This document shows positions 2,306 through 18,172 of a stretch of 19,137 nucleotides of DNA, one piece after another. The notes beneath the pieces are model-generated. The model saw only the letters and a program-made list of their open reading frames with translations, was not told the origin of the DNA and searched no databases. Position 1 is the stretch's first letter; each line of letters starts with the position of its first letter. The stretch comes from Candidatus Vampirococcus lugosii (GTDB lineage Bacteria > Patescibacteriota > Gracilibacteria > Absconditabacterales > Absconditicoccaceae). The position numbers and the translations under genes were made by a program. Where the stretch lies: contig NZ_JAEDAM010000098.1 of the NCBI RefSeq assembly GCF_018420025.1, positions 1 through 19,137 of the forward strand, written 5' to 3'.

Positions 2306-2369
2306 AGTCTTGAAATAATATTATAAATATTTATATATGAGTTATATTTATACATATATATATAAAAAT

Positions 2370-3059
2370 ATGATTTTTTCAAATAAAAAAGCTTTCACTT
2401 TGATAGAATTAATTATAACAACTATAATAATATCAACATGAGTTTTATGAATTGTTAGTGTTATAGATTATGGTTTCAAAGCTATATCTATAATAAGACA
2501 AGATGTTATAGCAACTAATCTTGCTAGAGAATGAATAGAATGAGTTTTTAATATTAGAGATACTAATTGGTTTAGATGGTCTGGTAGGAGGGATCAATGT
2601 TGGCTATTGGAAGATCCTTTATGAGCAAGCTCAGACTGTCAAAGTGAAGATTGGATATGATCTTGAAATTATATTTTATCTTGAACTACTCAAAGTTGAC
2701 AATTATATAATTATTTAAGTGGTTCTTCTTCAACATTAAATCTTGATGATTGATATAATGTTTCTCAAGACGGAGAATTTGCTTTATGTTCTGAAACTTG
2801 AAAAACATGGCATCCTTGTCCTGGGCAAGATAATACTTCTCCAGAAGGAAGATTTTTCCGTATGATACAAGTAAAATGATTGTATAATAAAGAAGATGGT
2901 AGTACTTTAAATTCTTGTTCTAATTGAAATGATACTACTCCTAATGATTGTTGAGATGAGACTGCAAAAGAGCTTGTATTTTGTTCTATAGTTGAATATA
3001 CTTGAAATGGATGAGGTAAAGTTGAATTATGTAGTAGTATTACTAATTTTAAAGATTAG
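2370..3059 (+). CDS. prepilin-type N-terminal cleavage/methylation domain protein (minor pilin or pseudopilin, 229 aa)
   Basis: ATG at 2370 and TAG at 3057-3059, frame checked. The N-terminus MIFSNKKAFTLIELIITTIIISTGVLGIV carries the class III signal (KA|FTLIE with Glu at +5), as in Gram-positive Com pilins. The globular part has 8 Cys and many in-frame TGA codons. Confidence 0.85.
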
Positions 3060-3106: not shown

Positions 3107-5302
3107 ATGGATATAATTACTTTGGAAAATTTTTTGAATTATGAACCTATATTTAATAAAGATCCTATTTTTTTATTGAATGAAATTAAAGAAAAAGCTT
3201 GAAAATATTTAAGTTCAGAAGATTTAAAATGAATAGATAAAGCATATGATTTTGGAAAAATGGCACATGAATGACAAATGAGACAATCATGAGAAATATA
3301 TTTTACTCATCCATTGAAAGCCACACTTTTTCTTATGAAAATAAGACCTTGATTAAAAAGTATTCAAGCTTGTATATTACATGATGTTATAGAAGATACT
3401 AAATATACTTATGAAGATGTAAAAAAAATATTTTGAGAAGATGTTGCAAATCTTTGTTACTGATTAGAAAAAGTTTCCAAAGTTAGATATGAATGACAGG
3501 ATAGGAATTTGGAAACATTAAAAAAAACTTTTTTGGCTATGTGAAGAGATTTGAGAGTTATATTTATAAAACTTGCTGATCGTATTCATAATATTCAAAC
3601 ATTACAGTTTCATCCAAAAGAAGAAAAAAGACTTAGAATAGCAAGAGAAACTTTAAAAATATATGTTCCTATAGCTCAAAGATTATGATTATCTGTTTTT
3701 CAAAATTATTTGGAAAATTGAGCTTTTTATATATTAAATCCTAAATGATTTACTAAAATTTTTAATCATATCAAAAAAAGACACTGAACTAATAATTCTT
3801 TTTATGTTAATGAAGGTATGAAAGAAATTGATGAACTTTTGAAAGAAAATTGAATAACAAATTTTAAAATAATGTGAAGATTAAAAAGTCCATATAGAAT
3901 ATATAAAAAGTTAAAAAAATATTCTACTGATGATCCAAATAAAATAATGGATGTATTAGCTTTTAGAATTATTGCTGATTCTCTTGCTGATTGTTATTCA
4001 ATTTTGTGATTAGTGAATAATAAGTATACTCCTTTAATCAAGAAAATTAAAGATTATATTGCATTACCAAAAGCTAATTGATATAGAAGTATTCATAGTA
4101 CTGTTATTTGAATGTTTAATTTCCCAGTAGAAATTCAAATAAGAACACAAGAAATGGATTATTTTGCTGAATTTTGAGTTGCTGCACATTTTGCATATAA
4201 AGAAAAATGATGACCAGTTTCTATATCTTTGGAACAATCAAAATGGATACAAAAATTACAAGAACTTGTAAATTCTTTTAAAGAATGAAAAGAAAATGAA
4301 AATTTTAAAAATACTTTGGAAATAGAGTTGTTAGATAAAAATATTTTTATATATACTCCATCTTGAGATGTTATAGAAATGCCTTCATGAAGTACAGTTT
4401 TAGATTTCGCTTTTAGAATACATACGGATGTTTGATTAAAATTTAGAGCTGCTTTTGTTGACGATAAAATAGTTCCTATTGATTACAAACTAAAAACATG
4501 AAATATAGTTTCTATCAAGACATATAAAAGAAAATATTCTGCATCAATTTCTTGGTCCAAATTTTTACATAATCCATCATCTAAATCAAAATTAAGTAGA
4601 TTTATAAGACAAAATGAGATTAAAGATAATATTATAAATGCAAAAGAACAATTAAATGTTATGCTTAATTTTTATTGACTCCCTTCTTTATTAGATAAAG
4701 AAAATAAAATATTAAAACAAAATTCTGAAACAAAATTAAATAATTTATTATTAAGAATTTATGATAAACAAATATCTCCTCTTAAACTTATCAAAAAATA
4801 TTACAATATAATTTCTGATAATAAAGAAAAAGAAAAAAAGGTTGTTCCTACATTTTGTAAAATGGATAAAATAATAATAGAATGATATAAAGATTTATAT
4901 TATTATAAATGTCCTGAATGCAATCCCAGTTGTCCAGATAAAATTGTAGGTAAAGCAACTAGAGATTGAGTAAAAATACATTCTATAAAATGTAAAGCAT
5001 TAAAAAATATATCTTATGACAAATTGCTTGAAGCACATTGGGATTGACAAGAATATAATAAATATTATCTAAAAATTGAATTACTTGCAAAAGATAGTCC
5101 ATGAGTTCTTATACAAGTTATTTCAATTTTTTCAGAACTTAGTATTAATATATCAAATATAAATGTTTATATGAAAAAGGATTGATATTCTTGATTTAAT
5201 ATAGAATTAGAATTTGATAATCCATCCAAGATACATTTTGTAATAAAAGAGTTGAAAAATAAAACTGAATTAGTAAAACTAGTGTCTAAAGAATTATTTT
5301 AA
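3107..5302 (+). CDS. relA: bifunctional (p)ppGpp synthetase/hydrolase, RelA/SpoT family (731 aa)
   Basis: Frame checked over all 732 codons. Hydrolase HD motifs are [18 protein letters not shown] and ILHDVIEDT. Synthetase motifs are [36 protein letters not shown] and [29 protein letters not shown]-like segment ([24 protein letters not shown]), a CPEC..C zinc-finger region and a C-terminal ACT-like segment follow. Confidence 0.95.
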
Positions 5303-6412: not shown

Positions 6413-9139
6413 CTATCTTCTTTGTATATTTAAATGATCCAACATAGATCTAGCTCAAGGTGGTAGATTATTCCAAATAGAAGGATTTGATTCTACCAAT
6501 AATGAAGCTCATTCATAAATATCATCATCACTTGCTCATCATCAATCAAACCAAGTTTCTATATTTGATCTTCTATTATTAATTAAATCATCAATTCATC
6601 ATCATCTAAGTATTCATTTTATTTTAAGTCTTCAATCACTAATCCAAGATTTATTTAAATTATTATTTATAAGTCTTTCTTGTTTAAAATTTTTATCTGT
6701 TAAGAATATTCATTCAACTTCTTGTAAAGAAGAATAATTGTTTAAATCAAATTTAATATTTCAATTTACGACTACAAACATTCAATTATTATTTTTTAAA
6801 TTTCAATTGATTGTTAAATTTCAACCTATTACTATTAAAGTATAAGGATTTGATGAAATATTACTTGAAATAGTAATATCATTTTTACAAAGATAAATTT
6901 CTTCTGACGGAACTTTTTTACATCAAGAAGGATTAGTTACATTTTTAACAGCTAAATTTTTATAATCTTTTACAAAATCTTTCAAAATATTTTCTATAGA
7001 TTCTGAATCAAACTTATCAGAAGAAGATATTATTGAATCAACACTTGTAGATATATTATCTCAATTAATTTTATAAAATTTTTCAAAAGTATTATCATTT
7101 GTAGATAATATTGCTCATTTTTGCATCAAATAAGGTTTAGTTACTGGAAAATTATACTCACAAATTCTATTTGATAGATTAACATTTCTCCAATTAGATC
7201 AATCACAAATTTTATAATTTTCAACTTTAATACTTACTTTATGTTCTCAATATTTTCAATCAACCATAGATTCTTTCAAAATCATAGCAATAGAACCATC
7301 AGAAATAGATTCTCATAAACTTCAAGATCTAAATCAATTTAATAAGTTTTTATTAAATTTTCAATCTCTTCAAATACAATTCTTTAACTCAGAATATATT
7401 ACTCATCAAGCATTTTCAATTTTCAATCTACATTTTGCATTATTTTTTATAGCTCACAAATTACTTGAATCACAAGTTGATCAGTATCTTTCTTCATTTT
7501 CCATTGCCCACCATATAGGAAGATATTCTCAAACTTGAATACTTGGCGGGTCTATCCATTTACATTTAGCAGGTTCTACAAAAATTTCTCTATCTGGATC
7601 TCATGGATCTCATGGATCTCATGGATCACCTGGATCTCATGGATCACCTGGATCACCTGGATCTCATGGATCACCTGGATCTCATGGATCACCAGGATCT
7701 CATGATCAAGCTACACAAACTACTAATTTTATTGCTCAATTATTTTTACATAACCATTCAATCCTTGGAAATCAACTATCTTTCCAATCACTAAAACTAG
7801 GTATATCTCAAAGATGAGTTGCTCAAGATGGACCACAAAAATCTCATTTCCAATCAGTATCAGAATCAGTATAATTTCATTCAGCTGGTCCACAATAAAC
7901 TGGTACACCTCATCAACCTGGAGGCTCATCATCACTTACTGTAATAGCTCATTGACATGCTCAAGCTGTTTCCCATCATTGACCCGCATTATTTACTTCA
8001 CATCTTGTATCATAATCTCAAGTATTACTAAATGTATAATTAAATTGTCAATTAGAATTTGTATTTACTAAACTTCAATTCACATACATTCTATATTCAT
8101 CTACATTTGTTCAAGCACATGTAAAATTTACACTTTCTCATTCCTCTACAGTTTTATTCTGAGGACTTAAACTATCACATACATAATCATCTTCATCATC
8201 ACTTACTGTAATAGCTCATTGACATGCTCAAGCTGTTTCCCATCATTGACCCGCATTATTTACTTCACATCTTGTATCATAATCTCAAGTATTACTAAAT
8301 GTATAATTAAATTGTCAATTAGAATTTGTATTTACTAAACTTCAATTCACATACATTCTATATTCATCTACATTTGTTCAAGCACATGTAAAATTTACAC
8401 TTTCTCATTCCTCTACAGTTTTATTCTGAGGACTTAAACTATCACATACATAATCTTGCAAATCAGGTATAGTACAATCAGATTGACAATTTGAATGATA
8501 TCAAGGATTATTAGAATCTGTAATTCAAGGATCACATTTTTCTCCATATTCAGATTGAAATTCACCATCTCAACAATATGAAATTCAATGAAATGCACAC
8601 TCTTTATGAGAGATAGGATTATCTAGATCAGGTGGTCAATCTAACTGAGTATAATAAGTAATATCATAATCAACTCTTATTCAAAGTTGATTAGGGTTTG
8701 CTGTTTTGGAAACTCAATCAAGAATTAAATTAGAAGAGGATTTCAATAAAGTTGTTTGTTCTCATGGGAAATACATAAAAATAGGTTCTCAAAGAGGATT
8801 ATCTTCTGGTGCTGAATAAGTATCATTTGGAAAATAATATTCAAAATTTTCTGGAAAATTCCAATATATATGAGTATTTTGAAGATTATACCAATTAACA
8901 CTATATTCTCACCATTTATGAATTAGATTTGATTGAGAATTTGAATTTTTAAAATCATCATATAAACGATATTCTCTTTTATGATAAAGATCTTTTCAAA
9001 TAAAACACTGATCACAAGCATTAGTATTTTGTCAGTTTAATAAAGGATCAGAACATTCTATTTCATCTAATAAATCAATATTTCAAAAAGAGAATGAAAA
9101 AGAAAAAAATATAACAACCAATAATATATATTTTTTCAT
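6413..9139 (-). CDS. large secreted or surface protein (908 aa): signal peptide, Cys-rich N-terminal region, two identical Ig-like modules, (Gly-Asp-Pro)x12 repeat, C-terminal GNLTI beta-helix-like module
   Basis: ATG at 9139-9137 and TAG at 6415-6413. All 909 triplets were checked with no TAA/TAG. The N-terminus MKKYILLVVIFFSFSFSFG looks like a signal peptide. The internal repeats are listed as separate features. Confidence 0.9.
7595..7702 (-). repeat. 12 tandem 9-bp units encoding (Gly-Asp-Pro)12 within the 6413..9139 CDS
   Basis: On the plus strand the units are ggatctcat or ggatcacct. On the coding strand they read TGA-GAT-CCA in 7 units and GGT-GAT-CC[A/T] in 5 units, counted directly. 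Confidence 0.95.
7926..8455 (-). repeat. tandem duplication with a 267-bp period; the two copies are identical over 263 bp and each encodes an 89-aa Ig-like module
   Basis: Positions 7926-8188 and 8193-8455 are identical base for base by direct comparison. Only the 4-bp junctions differ. The period of 267 bp equals 89 codons, so the reading frame is preserved. Confidence 0.95.
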
Positions 9140-9511
9140 ATACTTTTTATACTATATATATAAATATAAAATTTAATTAAAAATTTTAAATATCTTATAC
9201 ATAAAAAAATATAAAAATCAATATATTTTATATATTTATGCAAATAATGTTAAAATAACAACACTAAATAATACCCAAAAATAAAAAAGTATTAAAAGTA
9301 TTGTATAAACTTAATAAATGAGTATATTTTAAATTAAAATCCTTAAGATTAAATCCATAATCATTTTTTAAATTTGTTTCAGAATATACTAATATTATAT
9401 ACTTGATATAATACAAATCAGAAACTAAATTATTGACTATTTTTGAATTTTAAACATAATAACAAAAAATAGGAATTATTTAAAATATTTTCTTAAAAAA
9501 AGAATTAAGTT

Positions 9512-9539
9512 TTGACAAAAAAAAATATATTATTATAAT
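9512..9539 (+). promoter_or_regulatory. sigma70-like promoter candidate for the pilB-pilC-MBL operon
   Basis: TTGACA at 9512-9517, a 16-nt spacer, then TATAAT at 9534-9539, 47 bp upstream of the ATG at 9586. A-10-like hexamers are common by chance in DNA this AT-rich, but a full consensus -35 is not. Confidence 0.45.
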
Positions 9540-9585
9540 TAATTGTAAGTAAATTTTTTAATTCATATTTTAATAAATTAACTAT

Positions 9586-10794
9586 ATGTTTAAACAAATA
9601 GAAACTATAGATGATTTTAAAATTTTTGTTGATGATATAATAAGAGAAGCTATTGAACTAAATGCTTCAGATGTTCATATTGAACCACAAAAAGAAATTT
9701 TTCAGATAAGATATCGTATAGATTGAGAAATTTTTAAATTTTATTCAATTTCTATAGAAAATAAAGATAATTTAATAGCTAGAATAAAAATTTTGGCAAA
9801 ACTAAAAATTGACGAATCAAGAAGACCTCAAGACTGACAAATAGAATATGAATATCAAAATAATAATTGAAACATTGAAGATATAGATATGAGAATTTCT
9901 ACTTTCCCAACCATAAATTGAGAAAAAATAGTAATGAGAATACTTAAAAAAGATCCTAAATTATTAAATATAAATTCATTATGATTTATGCAATATAATC
10001 TTGACTCTATTAAAAAAACTTTACAAAATAAAGAATGATTGATATTAATATCAGGTGGAACAGGTTCTGGTAAAACAACTACACTTTATTCTATGTTAAA
10101 TAGTTATGATCCAGAAAAATTTAATATATCTACATTGGAAGATCCTGTTGAATACAAAATTGCTTGAATAAATCAATCTCAAGTAAAAAATGATATTTGA
10201 TATGATTTTTCTCAATGATTAAAAACATTGCTTAGACAAGATCCAGATATTATATTGGTATGAGAAATAAGAGATAGAGAAACTGCTAAACTTGCTATTG
10301 AAGCTTCAATGACGGGTCATTTAGTATTTGGAACTATTCACTCAAACAAATGAGTTTGAGTAATAGAAAGACTTGTTAATATGTGAATTGAACCATATTT
10401 AATAGCATCATCGTTAAAGATGGTATTATCTCAAAGATTAGTAAAAAAAGTATGTAGTAAATGTGCTCAAAACACTGAAATAAGTGATGAAGAGAAAAAA
10501 ATATTACAAACTTGACTATGATCAGTATGGAATTCTATAGAATCAAAAATTCAATTAAAAAAATGAGAAGGTTGTAAAAAATGTTTACAAACATGATATT
10601 CTTGAAGAATAGGAATACATGAAGTTACTATTATAGATAAAGATTTTAGTCGTGCTATAAATAAATGAATAAATAATGAAATATGGACAGAGCTTTGTAA
10701 GAAAAAATGATATTTAAGTTTATATCAGGATGCATTAATAAAATCTGCATATTGATTTATAAGTTTAGCTAATTCTGCACAATATAACAATTAA
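9586..10794 (+). CDS. pilB: type IV pilus / Com-type assembly ATPase, GspE/PilB/ComGA family (402 aa, short form without a long N-terminal domain)
   Basis: Frame checked. Walker A is [16 protein letters not shown]. The Asp box is [10 protein letters not shown], Walker B is DPDIILVGEIRD, and the His box is [13 protein letters not shown] tetracysteine CSKC...CKKC is present. Confidence 0.95.
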
Positions 10795-10816
10795 TTTATA
10801 TATCAAAATTATTTAG

Positions 10817-12979
10817 ATGGATATTAAAAAATTAATAAATTATATTTCAAAAAATATAGATTATATTTCGAACGATGATATAACTATGATTATTGATTGA
10901 AAATATAATGATTTTTTCAAAAGCATAAATGATAAATATGTTAAAGAAAAAGACAAAAAAAAGAAAAAAAAATATTTGGAAATAATAGAATTTATAAATA
11001 TATTTCTGGAAGATTATGAAAAAAACTGATATAAATATAATTATGATTTATCAAAAGAATATGAACATTTTTTATATTGGTTTAATTATTATTTAAATAA
11101 TAATAAACTTACAAAAGTAAACCAAGTTATTAATGATATTGAAAAATATTTTTGACAAGAATATTCATCCAAATTATATAAAAAATATAATAAAATTAAA
11201 CAAAGATATGAATTAGAACAAAAAAAAATAGAAATAAAATCAATAAAAAATAATGAATTAAAAACTATTGAAAAACTTATAGCTAATTGAAATTATTCAG
11301 AAGCTATGTCTAGTTGTTTAAAATATGCACAAGAATACGATGATGAAAAAACTATTAATAAATATATTGATAAAATAAATCAAAATAAAACTAATAAATT
11401 ATATGAACATACTAAAGATGATAATAAAGATTTTTTTGAAAAAATTGGTATGATTGATATCTACAAAGGAAATAAAGATAAAGATAATGGTAATTTCAAA
11501 AAAAATGATATAAAATTTTTATACAAAAAATTAGATAATTTGTATTCAAATAGTCATTTAGAGGATTGAATTTCATTAATAAATTATATGAGTGAAACTT
11601 ATGAATTATATGATAAAAAATTATCTAAATATAAATCAAAATTTCTTGACAAAAAAAGAGAAATTGAATCAAATAGTCAAAAAAATGATTATAATTTTGA
11701 ATTAAATAGTCTTAGATTAATGTTTAAAAATAAACAATATCAAGATTGTTTAATTAAAGCAAATAATATTTTAAAAAGATATCCTATGATATCAAAAATA
11801 GAAATTTTAAATATAATAAAAAAAGTAAAAAAGGAAAAATATAATATAACAAAAAATAGTTGAAAACAATCCTTTGAAGCAAAAGTTGAAAATTTTTTAA
11901 TAAACTTATCAAATCTAAATAAAAAAGGTATTGATGAATTTTATACAAAAATGGCTTGGTTTCTATGAGCAAATATGGATCTTAAACTTTCTATTCAAGT
12001 AATATATGCACAAACTAAAGATTATTGATTAAAAAAATTTATAAGAGAAATGCTGGAATGAATAGATACAGGTATTAAAATGTCTGATATTATGAAATGG
12101 TATAAGCAAATTTCTGAAATGGATATATCTTTAGTAAAAATATGAGAAAACACTTGAAAATTATGAGATATGTTTGAAAGTATTGCAAAACATAAAGAAG
12201 AAGCTAGCGAAAGAAGAAAAAAAATAAAATCTGTTATGATTTATCCCATTATTGTAATAAGTATTACAATAATTATTTTTATATGACTTTTAGTTTTTGT
12301 TCTTCCTCAATTTACAACATTGTTTAATCAAGTATGAATGGAAATGCCCGCACTTACACAAGCTATGATGTCAATAAGTAATTTTTTGAAAACAAAATAT
12401 TATTTAGTAATATTATTTATTGTATTATCTATAATGTTTTTTAAATTTTTGTGAAAAACAAATATCGGTAAATACATATATTCATATATGGCATTAAAAA
12501 TGCCAGTTGTTAAAGAAGTAGTTTATAGAAATTATGTAATACATTTGATGTGAAATTTATCTCTTATGTTAAATGCAGGTATTAATTTATTGGAAGCATT
12601 AGATATAGTTGCATCTTGAACAGCTAATAAATTATATAAAGATGAATTTAGAAGAATAAGATTTGAATTGGAATCTTGAATTACTTTTAGTAAAGCTGTA
12701 TGACTTGGTTGAGTTAATAATGCATCTAATTATAATAATATTTATGTACCTATAGATTGAGCATATGCCATTGATATATGAGAAAGAACATGACAATTAT
12801 GAAAATTATTATGAGATACAGCAGATCGTTATGACAAAGATTTAAAATTAATAATTAAAAATTTACAAAGCTTGATGGAACCATTTGTAATTTTATTAGT
12901 TTGATGAGTTGTATTTATGTTTGTTTTATCTATATTTTTACCTATGATACAAATGTATCAAGCTATATGATCATTATAA
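10817..12979 (+). CDS. pilC: PilC/GspF-family platform protein with a roughly 350-370 aa K/N/Y/E-rich N-terminal extension (720 aa)
   Basis: An in-frame TAG at 10814-10816 immediately precedes the ATG at 10817. All 721 triplets are free of TAA/TAG. The C-terminal half has two T2SSF-like repeats (GENTGKLGDMFESIA and GERTGQLGKLLGDTADRY) and three TM helices (IYPIIVISITIIIFIGLLVFVLP, YYLVILFIVLSIMFF, MEPFVILLVGGVVFMFVLSIFLPM). Confidence 0.9.
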
Positions 12980-13003: not shown

Positions 13004-13708
13004 ATGAATAGTATAATAAAAAAAGTTAAAATGGGTATAGCAAATGTATATTTGATAAATACAGAAAAAGGATTTATATTAGTTGATTCAGGTATGAAAA
13101 ATAAAATAAATAAACTTGAAAAAACTTTAAATAAAATTGATGCTAAATTAAAAGATATCGTTCTTATCGTAATAACTCATGTCCATTATGATCATGTATG
13201 AAGTTTATATCAGTTAAAAGAAAAAACTAATGCAAAAATATTAATTCATAATAAAGAAAAAAATATATTACAAAAGGGTAAAACTAATTTTCCTAAATGA
13301 ACTATGTTTATATTTAAAATAATATCTAAATTTGGAAGTTTTATTTCAAAAGGTAGTTTTAGACCTGTAAAAGCTGATATTGTAATAAATAATTTTTGTG
13401 ATTTAAAAGAATATTGAATTAATGCTAAAATTATACATACTCCATGACATACAAGTTGATCTATAAGTGTTATTGTTGAAGATAAATATATTATTTGTGG
13501 TGATACTTTTTTTAATCTTTTGCCTAATTGTGTATATCCACGATTTGCAAATGATGAAAAAACATTATTAAAAACTTTTGTTAAAATAAATAAATATAAT
13601 TTTGAAAAATTTTTTCCTGGTCATGGAGATATTTTTGGTAAAGAAAAATTTATAAAAACATTAAATTCATCTTTAGTAAAAAATAAATTAGCAAAAACTA
13701 ATTTATAA
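13004..13708 (+). CDS. metallo-beta-lactamase-fold hydrolase (234 aa)
   Basis: Motifs THVHYDHVG, HTPGHTSGS, ICGDTFF and FFPGHGD are present. The two standard-code ORFs at 13004..13201 and 13520..13708 share a frame and are joined through in-frame TGA codons. The gene starts 24 bp after pilC. Confidence 0.9.
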
Positions 13709-13754: not shown

Positions 13755-15638
13755 TTATTTAACCATTAAATAATAATTTCAAAAATCTTGTAATATTTCT
13801 TTTAAGTTTTTTGAATCATAATTTACACCTTTTATCATATTATATACTTCATCAATACTATTTGCACTAATATTTCAATCATTACTTTCAAGTTCTGCTA
13901 TCAAAGCATATCATTTATTCTCTTCTCAATCAGAATTAAGTGAAATATAATAATAATTTTTTCAATCCAAAGGATCATTAGGTAAACTATCCATATATCT
14001 AGGAATAAGATAATCTTGTATTTCACTAACTTCAATTATTCAATCACTTTCAGGATAAATTCATCTATCATAATGGTAAATTGACAAAGCTGTTCAAATT
14101 TGTCAAATATTTGCAAATCTTGCAGCATCTCTAGATTGAGCTTGAGCATATGTACGATCAGGAACTGATGTAGATAAAAACATTCATAATCAAACAATTC
14201 ATCAAGCTATTAAATATGGTGTTTCAATATCATTATATGAACTAAAATTAGGTAATTGAAAGAATTCATTATCTTTTGCTTGTACATAATTTGAAGGAAT
14301 TATATGTTCAAAATTATCTATTTCATAATTAATATTTAAATTATAAGAAAACATTTCTTCTCACATTGAATTTATATTAAATTTAGATTTTATTTCATTA
14401 TCTTTATAAGAAAACATTTTATCCAAATTTATAATTTCTTCTTTATCAGTATTTTCTGTTCATGCTGATCATTGTAGATCAATGTTTTCCCAAGCTGAAA
14501 AATCTCATTCAATATCCAAATAATATAAATCATCATATTCTTTTAAATTTCCAGATATTTTTAGATAATCATTATTATGATTTAAATTTCATTTAATAAA
14601 TGAATCACCTATTTCTTCAATAGGTTCTATAGAAAGATTAAGATCAGTATTATTATAAGATAAATCTCATGATAAAGATGAAGATAAGATATGTTTTTCT
14701 TCTCAAGAATTAATTTCATAATAATTAAAAGTAGAATCTAAATAATTATTTTCATATAATATTTTATATTTATTATTAGAGATAATGTCTAATCAAGTAA
14801 ATTTAATAGGGATATTTGTAATTAAATCTAAACTAAAATAATCTATTTTATTATCAATAAATTTAATTTTTGAAGAAATATCAAATTCATTTCAATTATT
14901 TAATTGAAAGTTTAAATCAAAATTATACATTTCATTTTCTTTCTCAAGTTTTCAAATTATTTTAACTTCTTCAGTATCAAAATTTAAATCATATTTATTA
15001 TCATCATATTTATATAATATATTTCATACAATTTCATTTTGAAATTTTGAAACTAGTTCAAAACTTCAAGAATCTTGATTTCATTCTCATTCCCAAGTAA
15101 TTTTTTCATATAAATTTTCCAAATTTCATACTGTATTATAATTTATTATTTTATCGTCTTTTATATCAATATTTAAGTTTGCATTTCATCATGAATTTTC
15201 AGATTCATAATTAAACTTTATATTTCAAAAAACTTCATCTTCAAAATTTAAATTTGCATTAAATTCCAAATTTTCTCATGCCATTTGCAAAAATGTAGGT
15301 GAAAACTTGAATGAAAGTTTGTTATTTTGATATTCAGAATTTAATCAAATCATAGGAGATTTAAGATTATAAGACAATATTTCTCAATTTTGATAAGATA
15401 AATCAAAAATAAAAAATCAATCATAATGTAAAGTTTCTATATCTCATTCATTTGTAACATATAATTGTTTTTGTACAAATTTATTTGCATTAGATATATA
15501 TTCTTTACAAATTGAAGAATTAAATTCAATAAATTGAAGTTCTGTATATTCATCTTTTGAAGAATTATATAAATCAACAAATATATCACAATTATCTTCT
15601 TTTATAGATAAATATTTTTTATCTCATTCATTATCAAA
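13755..15638 (-). CDS. C-terminal 627 codons of an interrupted large membrane or surface protein, ending in a GspG/type IV pilin-like domain
   Basis: This is the same frame as 15639..16280, open from just after the internal TAA down to TAA 13757-13755, with all triplets checked. The first in-frame ATG is at 15353-15351, and a TTG lies 8 codons before it. The last 154 codons (14219-13758) read PYLIAGGIVGLGMFLSTSVP-DRTYAQAQSRDAARFANIGQIGTALSIYHYDRGIYP...YLIPRYMDSLPNDPLDG...YALIAELE. Confidence 0.75.
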
Positions 15639-16280
15639 TTATTCAAATAAAAGTTTATAAGATCATTTACTAAAAAATAAATTAAGTAATTCCTCATCAA
15701 TTCAATATTTTTCAAAATAAGCATTAGGATTTGAACTTACTAATCATTTGATTAATCATACAATCAAATCATTATTTGCCAAATCTCATATCATTTGTAT
15801 TATAAATTTTGAATTATCTATTTTTGTATAATCATCATTATTATTAGTATTTCCAAAAATTTCTTCCAAAAATTCAGATTCTCAAAATTTATAATAAACT
15901 GATTCTTCATTTGAAATTAAATCAAGATTAGATATTTCAACTTTTTCTTCTCAGAATCAATCTTTGAGAATAAATGATAAATTATTTGCTGATAATCTTT
16001 GCTTTAATCAATTATCCATAGACAAAATACCTAAATCAGAACCTGAAAAAGAAATTTCAAAATTATCTATAGAACTATTTAAATCAAAATTAACATCAGC
16101 TTTTAAATTTATAGAATTATCACTTTTTTCATTTTTATTAAAACTTATATTATTAATAATATCTTTAATATTATCTTTAATATCAGAAAATCTTCAATCT
16201 AATGAAAAATAATAAGCTAAAATTCAAAATATAGCTCAAATCAATAATATAAATCATACAATATATTGTTTCCTAGTCAT
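15639..16280 (-). CDS. N-terminal 213 codons of the same interrupted protein (TM anchor plus start of the repeat-like region), ending at an in-frame TAA
   Basis: ATG at 16280-16278 and TAA at 15641-15639. The N-terminus MTRKQYIVGFILLIGAIFGILAYYF is a signal anchor. The frame continues open past the TAA for another 627 codons. Confidence 0.7.
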
Positions 16281-16426: not shown

Positions 16427-18093
16427 TTAATCTCTTAACAATCTTGATTCTATACCATTAGGTTGTATTATAAAAGAATTTCTTCTCCATCTATCACTGG
16501 AATCACTACAATTAACTCAATCAGTTCATTTTCAATTAGGTTTACAGTCCCAAGCAAAAAGTTGTCTCATTCATATTATGTCTTTATAATTATTATATGC
16601 AGTATCTCAAATAGATCTTTTTATCATTTTTTCTCTACTATCAGTAGGTCTTTGTGGTGAATTTAATAATGCCATCCTTCAATTAATATATAATTTATTA
16701 TTAATTTTATTATCAGTATCAGTTCAAACTAATAATCAATTTATAAAATAATCTCAATATAAATAAAGTCATTCAGTTACTCATGTTGATGTAGTATAAA
16801 ATCAATCTTTATCAATATCAACTTTACTTCATATATCAATCTTAATAACTCATCAATCTATAAAAACTTGTAAATTAGAATTTCATGCTTTTTGATTTTT
16901 CTTAATAGTAAGATTTCAATTTTTGATTAGAATTATATTATCAACACTACTTGATGTTAGATCATAATCTAAAACAACATCTTGACCATCTATACAAAAT
17001 AATTCTCTATCTTTATTTCAAGAATCAATACCTATTGGTCAACTTGTATCATCCCATTGTCATCTACATAGATCAGATGCATTTTTTTTCAAAGTATTCA
17101 TAGATGAGGATAGATTTACAGTTTTTCATCATATATTAAATGCTTGTTGTTGTGTTGCATCATCTCCAAGCTGTCACAATCTTGAAATAACGGATCTTCT
17201 TGAAGCCTCTGATCATTGTTCTCAAAGATAATATCATCACAATATTCATATAACACTAGATACTACTTGCATCACAGATCAATGATTTCTTGTAATACAA
17301 TTTTGATTAATATCATCGTTATATATAGATCATGTAAATATTAATCTTTTATCTTTATCACTATCAGGATCAAATTTATGTATCAAATCAATTATTGAGT
17401 TATCATTTGTTTCAGCAAATAAATCTTCCATACATTTTCTATGATTAACTTTACCTCAAACAAATCATACTCACCGTAAACTATCATAAATAAGACCTAC
17501 AGGTGTATTGTTATATAATGAAAAACTATCTGCATAATCATTATTAGTAGATCTATTAGTATTATAATCATATTCTCTTCAAGCTTGAATAAAAAAATCT
17601 TCAGCATAAAATGCACCTAAATCTCAATATTCAATATGACCAAAAATTGATGTTGGCTCAACACCTTGCCCCCTACAATTTGAATAAAATCATCAATCAA
17701 AATCATATCACATATTCATTCATCATGAAAGTGAACCACTCATATATTCATAATTATATTCATCTATAGCATATAATGTACTTCATCTCAAAGGATTAAA
17801 ATAAAATCATCTCAACTGCTCTTCACAAGTAATTGAATCAGAACTATTTTCAATTTTTAAAGTTTTAGATGAAGCCATATCATCTATATCAGTTAGTATC
17901 ATAAATCATCAAAAATCATTTCAAACTCAATTATCATGCAAAACATAAAAATGCATTTCTGAAACATTTCAACTAAGAGCTTGAGCTAAATCCTCAAATT
18001 CAAGTATTCAAAAAGAATGTGTAGCTCAAATTCAAAGTATAGATAGTAAAAATGTAATAAACATATATTTGATATACAATATTTTTATTTTCA
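16427..18093 (-). CDS. secreted protein (about 555 aa) with a C-terminal GNLTI module paralogous to that of 6413..9139; the 5' end carries a frame lesion
   Basis: The frame is open from 18151 to TAA 16429-16427 (574 codons, all checked). The first in-frame ATG/GTG/TTG is the ATG at 17956-17954. The signal-peptide-like segment VITFLLSILGIGATHSFG is encoded upstream of that ATG. The only upstream ATGs (18093 and 18063) are offset by one nucleotide. The end coordinate of 18093 assumes a 1-nt correction; the conservative call is 16427..17956. Confidence 0.7.
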
Positions 18094-18172
18094 TATTTAT
18101 TTTTATTTAAGTAAATTAAAAATTTATATAAATTAAGTATATAGAATATAATTAAATTTGTCAAGTATTTTT

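Follow-up and report, generated by a model that had tools for sequence, protein, structure and literature searches.

The window considered here is a complete 19,137-bp contig of the ultra-small bacterium Candidatus Vampirococcus lugosii, and our subject is one long reading frame on its reverse strand, which runs from ATG 16280 to a TAA at 13757-13755 and spans 842 codons under genetic code 25. An original prediction, made from the letters of the window alone, had described this frame as interrupted by a single TAA and had placed in it a signal anchor, a beta-strand-like alternation, a second hydrophobic helix and pilin-type motifs, all of which we found again at the positions given for them. 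The features of the frame are the following (AF2, AlphaFold2).

13755..16280, reverse strand: whole frame, read as one ancestral gene (codon counts; orthologues continuous across the break)
16206..16262, reverse strand: N-terminal membrane anchor, residues 7-25, IVGFILLIGAIFGILAYYF, after MTRKQ (hydrophobicity; all orthologues)
15639..15641, reverse strand: internal TAA, codon 214 (Glu column in five of six orthologous gene copies)
15354..15638, reverse strand: 95 unannotated codons, codons 215-309 (best-conserved segment of the family; C231 and C258)
14328..15320, reverse strand: amphipathic antiparallel beta-meander, residues 321-651, about 24 strands (AF2, Foldseek, amphipathicity)
14160..14219, reverse strand: degenerate pilin alpha1-N helix, residues 688-707, PYLIAGGIVGLGMFLSTSVP (register with the organism's own prepilin; Hessa-scale sums)
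13758..14159, reverse strand: GspG/PulG-type alpha1-C helix and globular head, residues 708-841 (profiles, BLASTP, AF2)

V. lugosii is an epibiotic predator of anoxygenic phototrophs in which UGA is reassigned to glycine (PMC8080830). Translation of 16280-13755 on the reverse strand with table 11 gave many stops, 50 of them TGA; counted under code 25, the 842-codon frame carries these 50 TGA codons in frame, and a TAA occurs only at codon 214 (15641-15639), between ...SYKLLFE and FDNEGDKK..., and at the terminator, so that the prediction of a single internal stop was correct. Stop-free stretches of at least 100 codons, counted with overlaps in all six frames, amount to 667 codons if the standard code is applied and to 7,622 if TGA is read as sense, which indicates that TGA is sense across the whole window, and TGA is the main glycine codon (for example, 33 TGA versus 3 GGN in the 532-aa part of the frame). 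The other five frames of 13755-16280 contain 33-91 TAA or TAG triplets per ~841 codons, versus one in the target frame, and the chance expected from base composition is 1.9e-4 for 95 open codons and ~3e-25 for 627. The first in-frame start candidates behind the internal TAA are TTG 15377 and then ATG 15353, with no ATG, GTG or TTG in the 88 codons between the TAA and TTG 15377. Thus, the two earlier statements that 95 codons pass before any ATG and that this openness exceeds chance both hold.

In GenBank the locus is represented by two hypothetical proteins, MBS8122465.1 (213 aa, 16280-15639) and VAMP_106108n207 (532 aa, from ATG 15353), and codons 215-309 carry no annotation. All useful homologues came from an exhaustive HMMER search with the 532-aa product, which returned 340 matches, the best 150 of which were examined. 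Word-index homology searches with the full frame or with the orthologue alignment, whose words are of low complexity and rich in N, K and D, retrieved only the protein itself, and the same kind of search with the tail alignment added only P0153 and P0154. An alignment of six family members had no stretch conserved enough to search with; with one of three members, reference genomes gave two loci, of which one was new, and the Joint Genome Institute (JGI) metagenomes gave none. The orthologues, with the residues around the column of the internal stop, are these (MAG, metagenome-assembled genome).

P0002, 689 aa: Ca. Absconditicoccus praedator, complete genome CP054059; LLFE-E-VD
P0028, 851 aa: MAG / metagenome contigs; YLFE-E-VE
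P0012 and P0017, 834 and 1,017 aa: tandem neighbours on one contig; ILFE-E-TL and LFFR-E-LK
P0019, 827 aa: JGI metagenome contig; poor alignment at the stop column
L006: further orthologue in a reference MAG; LLFE-E-VD

These are five independent orthologues and six gene copies, P0012 and P0017 being tandem paralogues, and in all of them the region of the break is uninterrupted, five of the six having Glu in the stop column. Compared with the Absconditicoccus orthologue, 41% of the residues are identical before the stop, 50.5% within the 95 codons that lack annotation and 35-41% beyond, so that conservation is similar on both sides of the TAA and does not drop downstream. Both cysteines of the Vampirococcus protein, C231 (15590-15588) and C258 (15509-15507), lie in the unannotated stretch, and in the orthologue alignment both are invariant across the family. 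The start that GenBank assigns to the second protein, Met310, is not conserved (Val, Gly or Thr in the orthologues) and falls inside the conserved core. Glutamate in the 842-codon frame is encoded 69 times by GAA and 3 times by GAG, and one G>T change therefore accounts for the TAA. As judged from these alignments, the two halves are one gene, apparently hit by a GAA>TAA change. This agrees with the earlier proposal that both parts belong to one gene: the related code-25 genomes gave single uninterrupted frames and no consistent two-gene layout. The suggestion that the gene might be decaying did not hold for the family, which is conserved, and applies at most to one nonsense change here.

The TAA could equally be a real mutation or an amplification or assembly error in the consensus. 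Taken as real, it would make the V. lugosii copy a recently inactivated pseudogene or a strain variant that yields at most an anchored stub of 213 aa, and we put this just short of an even chance. TAA is the usual terminator in the window (it ends 11 of the 13 genes, and the base after the internal TAA is T), neither a restart codon within 88 codons nor an ATG within 95 follows it in frame, the submitters kept the split in their curated annotation, and the closest orthologue has already lost its tail, so that the family tolerates truncation. Against this, the lesion is the only one in 842 codons, is accompanied by neither a frameshift nor a downstream fall in conservation, and would have to be very recent; moreover, the genome was assembled from amplified, micromanipulated cells (PMC8080830), which makes a single G>T consensus error plausible, and neither independent reads nor strain-level sequence came to light, a DNA search across the TAA site with N at its first base giving no match. 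Programmed readthrough or reassignment of TAA was rejected on its use as the terminator and on the T that follows, and reinitiation as a designed feature on the want of a start codon for 88 codons and on the unconserved Met310. That GenBank is right and that two truly separate genes of 213 and 532 aa lie here is an idea to which we give almost no weight, since all five independent orthologues are single uninterrupted genes, the second start is unconserved and sits within the conserved core, the 95 codons before it are the best-conserved segment, and a 532-aa product would on its own have no anchor, leaving its beta and Cys-pair regions in the wrong compartment.

The N-terminal anchor, present in all orthologues, has a Kyte-Doolittle 19-mer maximum of 2.44 and a Hessa-scale sum of -2.1 kcal/mol. 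No family in Pfam or NCBIfam matches the core that follows it. AF2 models were made separately for the 532-aa GenBank product and for the intact Absconditicoccus orthologue, neither of which spans the Vampirococcus break. In the former (mean predicted local distance difference test score, pLDDT, 77.5) about 24 hairpin-connected strands occupy residues 12-342 with pLDDT values up to 96, followed by a low-confidence linker and helix and then by the tail; in the latter (pLDDT 68) the anchor helix (2-27) is followed by seven strands, a helical insert at ~131-264 and about 30 more strands. The region between anchor and beta-meander is modelled as a small alpha/beta unit that holds the invariant Cys pair. 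The strands are strongly amphipathic, one face being 72% L/I/F/Y/G and the other made of N/K/E/D/S, and the difference in hydrophobicity between the faces is 3.55, compared with 1.70 +/- 0.24 in 500 shuffles (maximum 2.5). The alternating, strand-like pattern that had been read from the sequence is thus confirmed.

Compared by Foldseek with the Protein Data Bank, both models matched apolipoprotein B-100 (ApoB-100) first, the Vampirococcus model at E=2.5e-4 (9coo_A; top three 2.5e-4 to 9e-4) and the orthologue model at E=4e-6 (9e9r; range 4e-6 to 7e-5). Vitellogenin was also listed, and matches to barrels of the LptD, VDAC and usher type ranked below ApoB, with TM-scores of 0.09-0.19 and probabilities of 0.1-0.9. 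On these scores and ranks a beta-barrel inserted into the prey or into an outer membrane finds little support; Candidate Phyla Radiation (CPR) bacteria are generally regarded as monoderm. A beta-taco of the AsmA/TamB/VPS13 type, which is built of 5-strand repeats with crossover loops or helices, was rejected for now, since the core is a pure hairpin meander and no such matches were obtained. V. lugosii is reported to depend on its host for lipids (PMC8080830), and because the continuous greasy face of the sheet needs to be covered by lipid, by a partner or by the sheet itself, a role at a lipid or membrane surface is the most natural inference for a lipid-dependent predator. The likeliest picture is of a sheet that rests on a lipid surface or binds to it, be it the cell's own membrane or that of the prey.

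The tail begins at about residue 686 of 841, behind an N-terminus that is an ordinary anchor (MTRKQYIVGFILLIG...), and its motifs follow in the order SRDAAR...YP...PNDP...YALIAELE; the head, residues 708-841, carries a lineage-specific C-terminal extension whose last residues are YYLMVK. Most of the best 150 HMMER matches are short prepilins of ~100-270 aa, with the consensus G/FTLIELLVVIAIIG (cleavage after G) ...RDAxR..D..Q...ALE.Y..DNG.YP...L.P.Y....P.DP.....Y.Y...Y.L.A.LE, and the residues that hardly vary in the head (R, D, R, L, Y, P, P-D-P, Y-Y and E) are kept in the target. Searched singly, the target scored 20.1-20.6 bits with Pfam T2SSG (PF08334; E=5e-4 to 7e-4), under the cutoff of 21, and the tail matched TIGR01710 (GspG) at E=2e-4 from profile position 12 onwards, that is, without the leader and the FTLIE part. 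T2SSG was found at E<=0.01 in seven of 14 related tails (best 4.4e-6), and P0013 scored 31.1 bits. A tails-only profile, made from 14 non-canonical tails each cut after the hydrophobic helix and with every classical pilin left out, matched the structures of EpsG/GspG heads (3gn9, E=2e-6; 3fu1, 1.4e-5; 4lw9, 1.7e-5), and its top eight matches were all GspG. The profile check proposed for the C-terminal 154 aa thus established the homology, and the single-sequence T2SSG score did not reach its threshold.

The classical prepilin nearest to the tail is P0011, whose cluster holds the V. lugosii pseudopilin annotated as PulG, MBS8121595.1. BLASTP of the tail against this PulG-like prepilin (P0011/P0155) gave 40% identity over 120 aa (E=9e-27), with no indel from the helix through RDAAR36 to the YP motif, the target reading E1-T2-P3-Y4-L5-...-G14-...-P22-...-Q28-x-Q30-x-R32-D-A-A-R36 and the prepilin F1-T2-L3-V4-E5-...-G14-...-P22-...-Q28-x-Q30-x-R32-D-A-A-R36; Thr2, Gly14, Pro22 and the C-terminal YYLMVK are common to both. 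In the AF2 model the tail folds, at pLDDT 85-98, into a helix of 31 residues, then a small sheet and two short helices (helix 400-430 and strands 468-487 and 527-531 in the numbering of P0001, the 532-aa product). By these sequence comparisons the C-terminal 154 aa is pilin-derived and homologous to GspG and type IV pilins, as had been predicted, and the alignment shows the module to be collinear with the whole mature pilin and, by that measure, descended from the lineage's own PulG-type pilin. The tail is at least as close to the organism's own pilin as to the tails of its orthologues (26-33% identity), and tails seem to track local pilin repertoires, which would fit recent recruitment, gene conversion or co-evolution.

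Importantly, the tail lacks what a prepilin needs at its start. A class III signal peptide consists of a leader ending in Gly or Ala followed by ~21 hydrophobic residues with Glu5 (PMC8179133). In register with P0011/P0155 (G/FTLVEML...), the target reads I/ETPYLIA, with Ile(-1), Glu1 and Leu5, so that the absence of an FTLIE/Glu+5 motif that had been noted earlier is real; P0012 and P0019 likewise have no Glu5, and the cleavage site Gly/Ala(-1) before Phe1...Glu5 occurs in no orthologue. Pfam N_methyl did not match the target, and it did match the prepilin of the window (22.6 bits) and P0155 (38 bits). The second helix (residues 688-707), which AF2 models at low confidence, has a Hessa-scale sum of +1.4 (17-mer) to +4.3 (19-mer) kcal/mol, and in the three other orthologues that have it the sum is +1.1 to +4.7, compared with a median of -3.0 (range -4.75 to +1.17) in 53 classical pilin alpha1-N segments. 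With Ile(-1)/Glu1/Leu5 and so weakly hydrophobic a helix, the idea of a pilin with a giant pro-region is not supported. The placing of the pilin unit behind ~690 residues with no class III signal peptide stands and recurs in P0012 and P0019.

Pilin heads in the terminal position are not confined to this family. The same head, without a hydrophobic helix, closes two further V. lugosii proteins, P0003 and P0004, where its identity to the target tail is 67% and 65%, and in about 19 of the best 150 HMMER matches over 100 residues separate the head from the N-terminus, the head being mostly C-terminal and often present in tandem. Proteins of this kind include the following.

P0003, 859 aa: signal peptide, weak thioredoxin-like match, terminal head
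P0004, 182 aa: signal peptide with lipobox-like Cys (putative small lipoprotein), terminal head
P0010, 161 aa: textbook lipobox (LSAC) and head
P0007, P0008, P0013, P0029 and P0036: two or three head copies; several from CPR lineages that are not recoded

Since Gly-1, Phe1 and Glu5 are lost and the same head occurs without a helix on two other proteins, the tail would therefore be a domesticated pilin head that serves as a C-terminal module and not a prepilin or pro-pilin, and the pilin head in general appears to have been domesticated as a C-terminal surface module. Cleavage, N-methylation and pilin-like polymerisation of the protein would not be possible, and ordinary polymerisation is unlikely. 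The most likely role of the tail is to dock or anchor the protein by recognising pilins or the envelope associated with the pilus.

Tail states differ within the family: Vampirococcus, P0012 and P0019 have helix and head, P0017 has a terminal head with no helix before it, P0028 has the helix followed by different or diverged sequence, and Absconditicoccus praedator, the closest orthologue, has none and ends at a genuine TAA after ...QLPDLTVYK. The tandem of P0017 and P0012 lies at 6906-9959 and 10001-12505 of its locus (L002), and P0017 has, besides its terminal helix-less head, an extra internal pilin-like segment (...MSIIGALANIYSVGMF...RDADHRRLGDIGAIERALE...). In the Absconditicoccus-type genomes a conserved small gene of 142 or 132 aa lies directly 3' of the orthologue (L001 12137-12565; L004 4133-4531) and codes for a protein with a signal peptide, an acidic stretch and a pair of hydrophobic helices; downstream in V. 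lugosii there is no counterpart of it, and the pilin-like tail stands there instead. The MAG contigs L006 and L007 (CAYMVT010000028.1 and CAZWWJ010000065.1; GC ~0.26) are titled 'uncultured Candidatus Peribacteria bacterium', and their orthologue frames contain TGA (Gly under code 25), at which P0028, the protein of L007, was called with Trp; these records may carry a wrong taxonomic label or have been read with the wrong genetic code. A literature search gave no account of the family, nor of pilin-like domains at the C-terminus of proteins in Patescibacteria. As a family of envelope proteins in Absconditabacteria and related code-25 lineages it is undescribed to date.

Taken together, we lean modestly towards reading the locus as one gene for an envelope protein of Absconditabacteria and code-25 CPR bacteria that is made of an anchor, an amphipathic beta-meander and a domesticated pilin-derived C-terminal module, does not polymerise and lies outside the cytoplasm. 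The N-terminal anchor would hold the protein, with the rest exposed outside the cytoplasm, the amphipathic sheet would lie on or bind a lipid surface of the cell's own membrane or the prey's, and the pilin-derived tail would dock on or anchor to pilins or the pilus-associated envelope; its function can be inferred only, whereas the pilin homology and the single gene are firm and neither the pro-pilin nor the pilus-plug mechanism is supported. The polypeptide after the first anchor is probably extracytoplasmic throughout. The invariant C231/C258 pair suggests that the region after the anchor is outside, and an extracytoplasmic tail is favoured because the paralogous heads follow export signals, because orthologue tails keep a Cys pair like that of the D-region, and because the second helix is too weak for a confident stop-transfer.

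Several points weigh against this reading. The tail would be dispensable for the core function, given that it is absent from Absconditicoccus, the closest orthologue, and replaced in P0028. The orthologue tails share their Cys pair and a ...PCFYVI ending with P0010, and the Vampirococcus tail has no such pair. The ApoB matches have TM-scores of 0.21-0.31 and identities of 9-13%, and they may reflect shared geometry only, that is, the structural class of an extended amphipathic meander and not homology; the greasy face may instead be buried by curling or dimerisation. Finally, an anchor running in to out and a second helix running out to in would place the tail in the cytoplasm, and of the two flanks of the second helix the one on the C-side is somewhat the more positive.

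As an alternative, the protein could be a modular pilin in reverse, whose tail enters a type IV pilus or its platform through alpha1 and head, as a last or basal subunit or by lateral docking, and so couples the beta-sheet passenger to extension and retraction. The flanking genes and the prepilin gene of the window are these.

13004-13708, forward strand: metallo-beta-lactamase-fold gene, flanking the target
10817-12979, forward strand: PilC/GspF-like platform gene, 720 aa, two T2SSF matches in the C-terminal half
9586-10794, forward strand: PilB/GspE-type ATPase gene, 402 aa, T2SSE match over nearly the whole protein
2337-3059: canonical prepilin gene, N_methyl match

The frame thus has pilB- and pilC-like genes as neighbours in this contig, and a prepilin gene is 10.7 kb away. 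The tail retains a complete collinear alpha1, including Gly14 and Pro22, and its likeness to the resident PulG-type pilin, at least as great as that to orthologue tails, together with the common YYLMVK, suggests co-evolution with that pilin or recent recruitment from it. Set against these points, Phe1 and Glu5, which are treated as needed for processing and assembly (PMC8179133), are missing from every orthologue; the helix falls short of a real alpha1-N in hydrophobicity by 4-7 kcal/mol; an N-terminal extension of ~690 residues would come to lie at the place in the filament core into which alpha1-N packs; and helix-less copies of the same head exist. Furthermore, no pilus genes were found near the orthologues in L001-L004, and as adjacency to pilus genes is not conserved it carries little weight. 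We therefore consider a pilus subunit of this kind unlikely. The original prediction had also considered a pilin-like anchor by which a passenger is plugged into the pilus or its platform; this possibility, though it may still hold, is weakened by the weak helix, the helix-less heads, the loss of the tail in the closest orthologue and the lack of pilus-gene neighbours of the orthologues.

A two-pass membrane protein, in which the second helix is a true stop-transfer and the head is cytoplasmic, acting on the pilus machine from its cytoplasmic face or elsewhere, is quite unlikely. This would be the default topology of an N-in anchor followed by a second hydrophobic segment, and Lys and Arg are more numerous on the C-flank than on the N-flank in Vampirococcus, P0012 and P0019; however, real pilins also have an alpha1-C rich in Arg and Lys and yet are outside. 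Moreover, the helix is marginal for insertion in all four orthologues, the paralogous heads stand behind export signals, either a signal peptide (P0003) or a lipobox-like Cys (P0004, P0010), P0017 carries the same terminal head as its tandem paralogue P0012 with no helix before it, and the D-region-like Cys pair of the orthologue tails is expected only outside the cytoplasm.

A more ambitious reading has the ApoB-like belt bind or extract prey lipid, the tail couple the belt to the type IV pilus apparatus through PulG-type pilins or the platform, and the helix-less and helix-degenerate heads act as a general C-terminal docking tag of CPR bacteria; we regard it as a long shot. If true, the belt would sit at or move through the contact zone of a predator that cannot make its own lipids, and the tag would attach cargo to pilin-based surface structures in CPR bacteria.

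The remainder of the window deserves a brief description. The 720-aa PilC-like protein begins with a K/N/E-rich extension of ~350 residues that has no family match, and the 402-aa PilB-like ATPase has CxxC...CxxC motifs and apparently does without the N-terminal domains of longer PilB/GspE proteins. Directly upstream of the target on the same strand lies a gene for a 555-aa signal-peptide protein with no family match (16427-18094, reverse strand), and beyond it an open reading frame of at least 320 codons is open to the contig end (18173-19135, reverse strand); homologues of these two were not seen next to the orthologues. The 908-aa gene at 6413-9139 (reverse strand) encodes a large secreted protein and has a local GC of 0.31-0.33, compared with ~0.20 elsewhere. 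It contains a 267-bp tandem duplication at 7926-8455 (2.0 copies, 100% identity) that encodes two identical PKD/Ig-like modules, and a 9-bp repeat at 7595-7704 (12.2 copies) that encodes (GDP)n; a duplication so perfect may be of very recent date or stem from the assembly. A full-length RelA/SpoT homologue (HD, RelA_SpoT, TGS and ACT), kept in a highly reduced predator genome, is encoded at 3107-5302 (forward strand), between the prepilin gene and a gene for a double-zinc-ribbon membrane protein. No tRNA or Rfam feature was found in the window.

Absconditabacteria-type organisms live attached to other cells, and about half of their proteins are unannotated. For this setting the family of anchored amphipathic beta-belts, with its confidently modelled and unusual fold, offers a concrete candidate for interaction with membrane or lipid where predator and prey meet. 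The GenBank locus should read as one interrupted gene and not as two hypothetical proteins minus 95 conserved codons; if the TAA is real, the product would be the 213-aa anchored stub and this copy of the gene inactivated. Beyond this family, pilin heads appear to be reused in CPR bacteria as ordinary building blocks of surface proteins, in single or tandem copies and both on putative lipoproteins and on anchored proteins of large size.

Among known systems, the core is closest to the beta-belt of ApoB-100 and of large lipid transfer proteins (9coo, 9e9r, 9ea7 and 9bde; vitellogenin, 9enr), with which it shares a long, hairpin-connected, amphipathic antiparallel sheet; it differs in having no detectable sequence relationship to them, so that the likeness is possibly one of convergent geometry, and lipid binding is only predicted for it. 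The tail is homologous in its alpha1-C and beta-sheet head to the GspG/PulG pseudopilins and the type IV pilins of CPR bacteria (PF07963 with PF08334; TIGR01710), in which the unit stands at the N-terminus, whereas in the target it follows ~690 residues, has neither leader, Gly(-1), Phe1, Glu5 nor N_methyl match, and starts with an alpha1-N that is only marginally hydrophobic. In its use, the head may be likened to the S-layer homology (SLH) domains and the C-terminal domain of the type IX secretion system (T9SS), which are terminal modules shared by surface proteins: here too, one terminal module (65-67% identical) is found on otherwise unrelated secreted proteins of one genome. The pilin head has no sequence or fold relationship to either, and as regards sorting or binding to the cell wall or S-layer the likeness is one of analogy only. 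The archaeal FlaF and FlaG are envelope-bound, soluble archaellin-like domains and set a precedent for the reuse of a filament subunit's fold in an envelope component that does not polymerise. Finally, in the modular type IV pilins (Streptococcus sanguinis PilB/PilC, CofB, ComZ and GspK) a pilin module and a large non-pilin module are likewise joined in one polypeptide, and Raynaud et al. 2021 found more than 1,200 of them, in 264 architectures, through the N-terminal IPR012902 motif (PMC8179133). That motif is absent from the target, so that a catalogue keyed on it cannot find the present arrangement, which lies outside the current pilin catalogues. The C-terminal pilin head after an N-terminal cargo is the reverse of the order in known modular pilins: the cargo comes first with an anchor of its own, and the pilin module comes last and is unprocessable.

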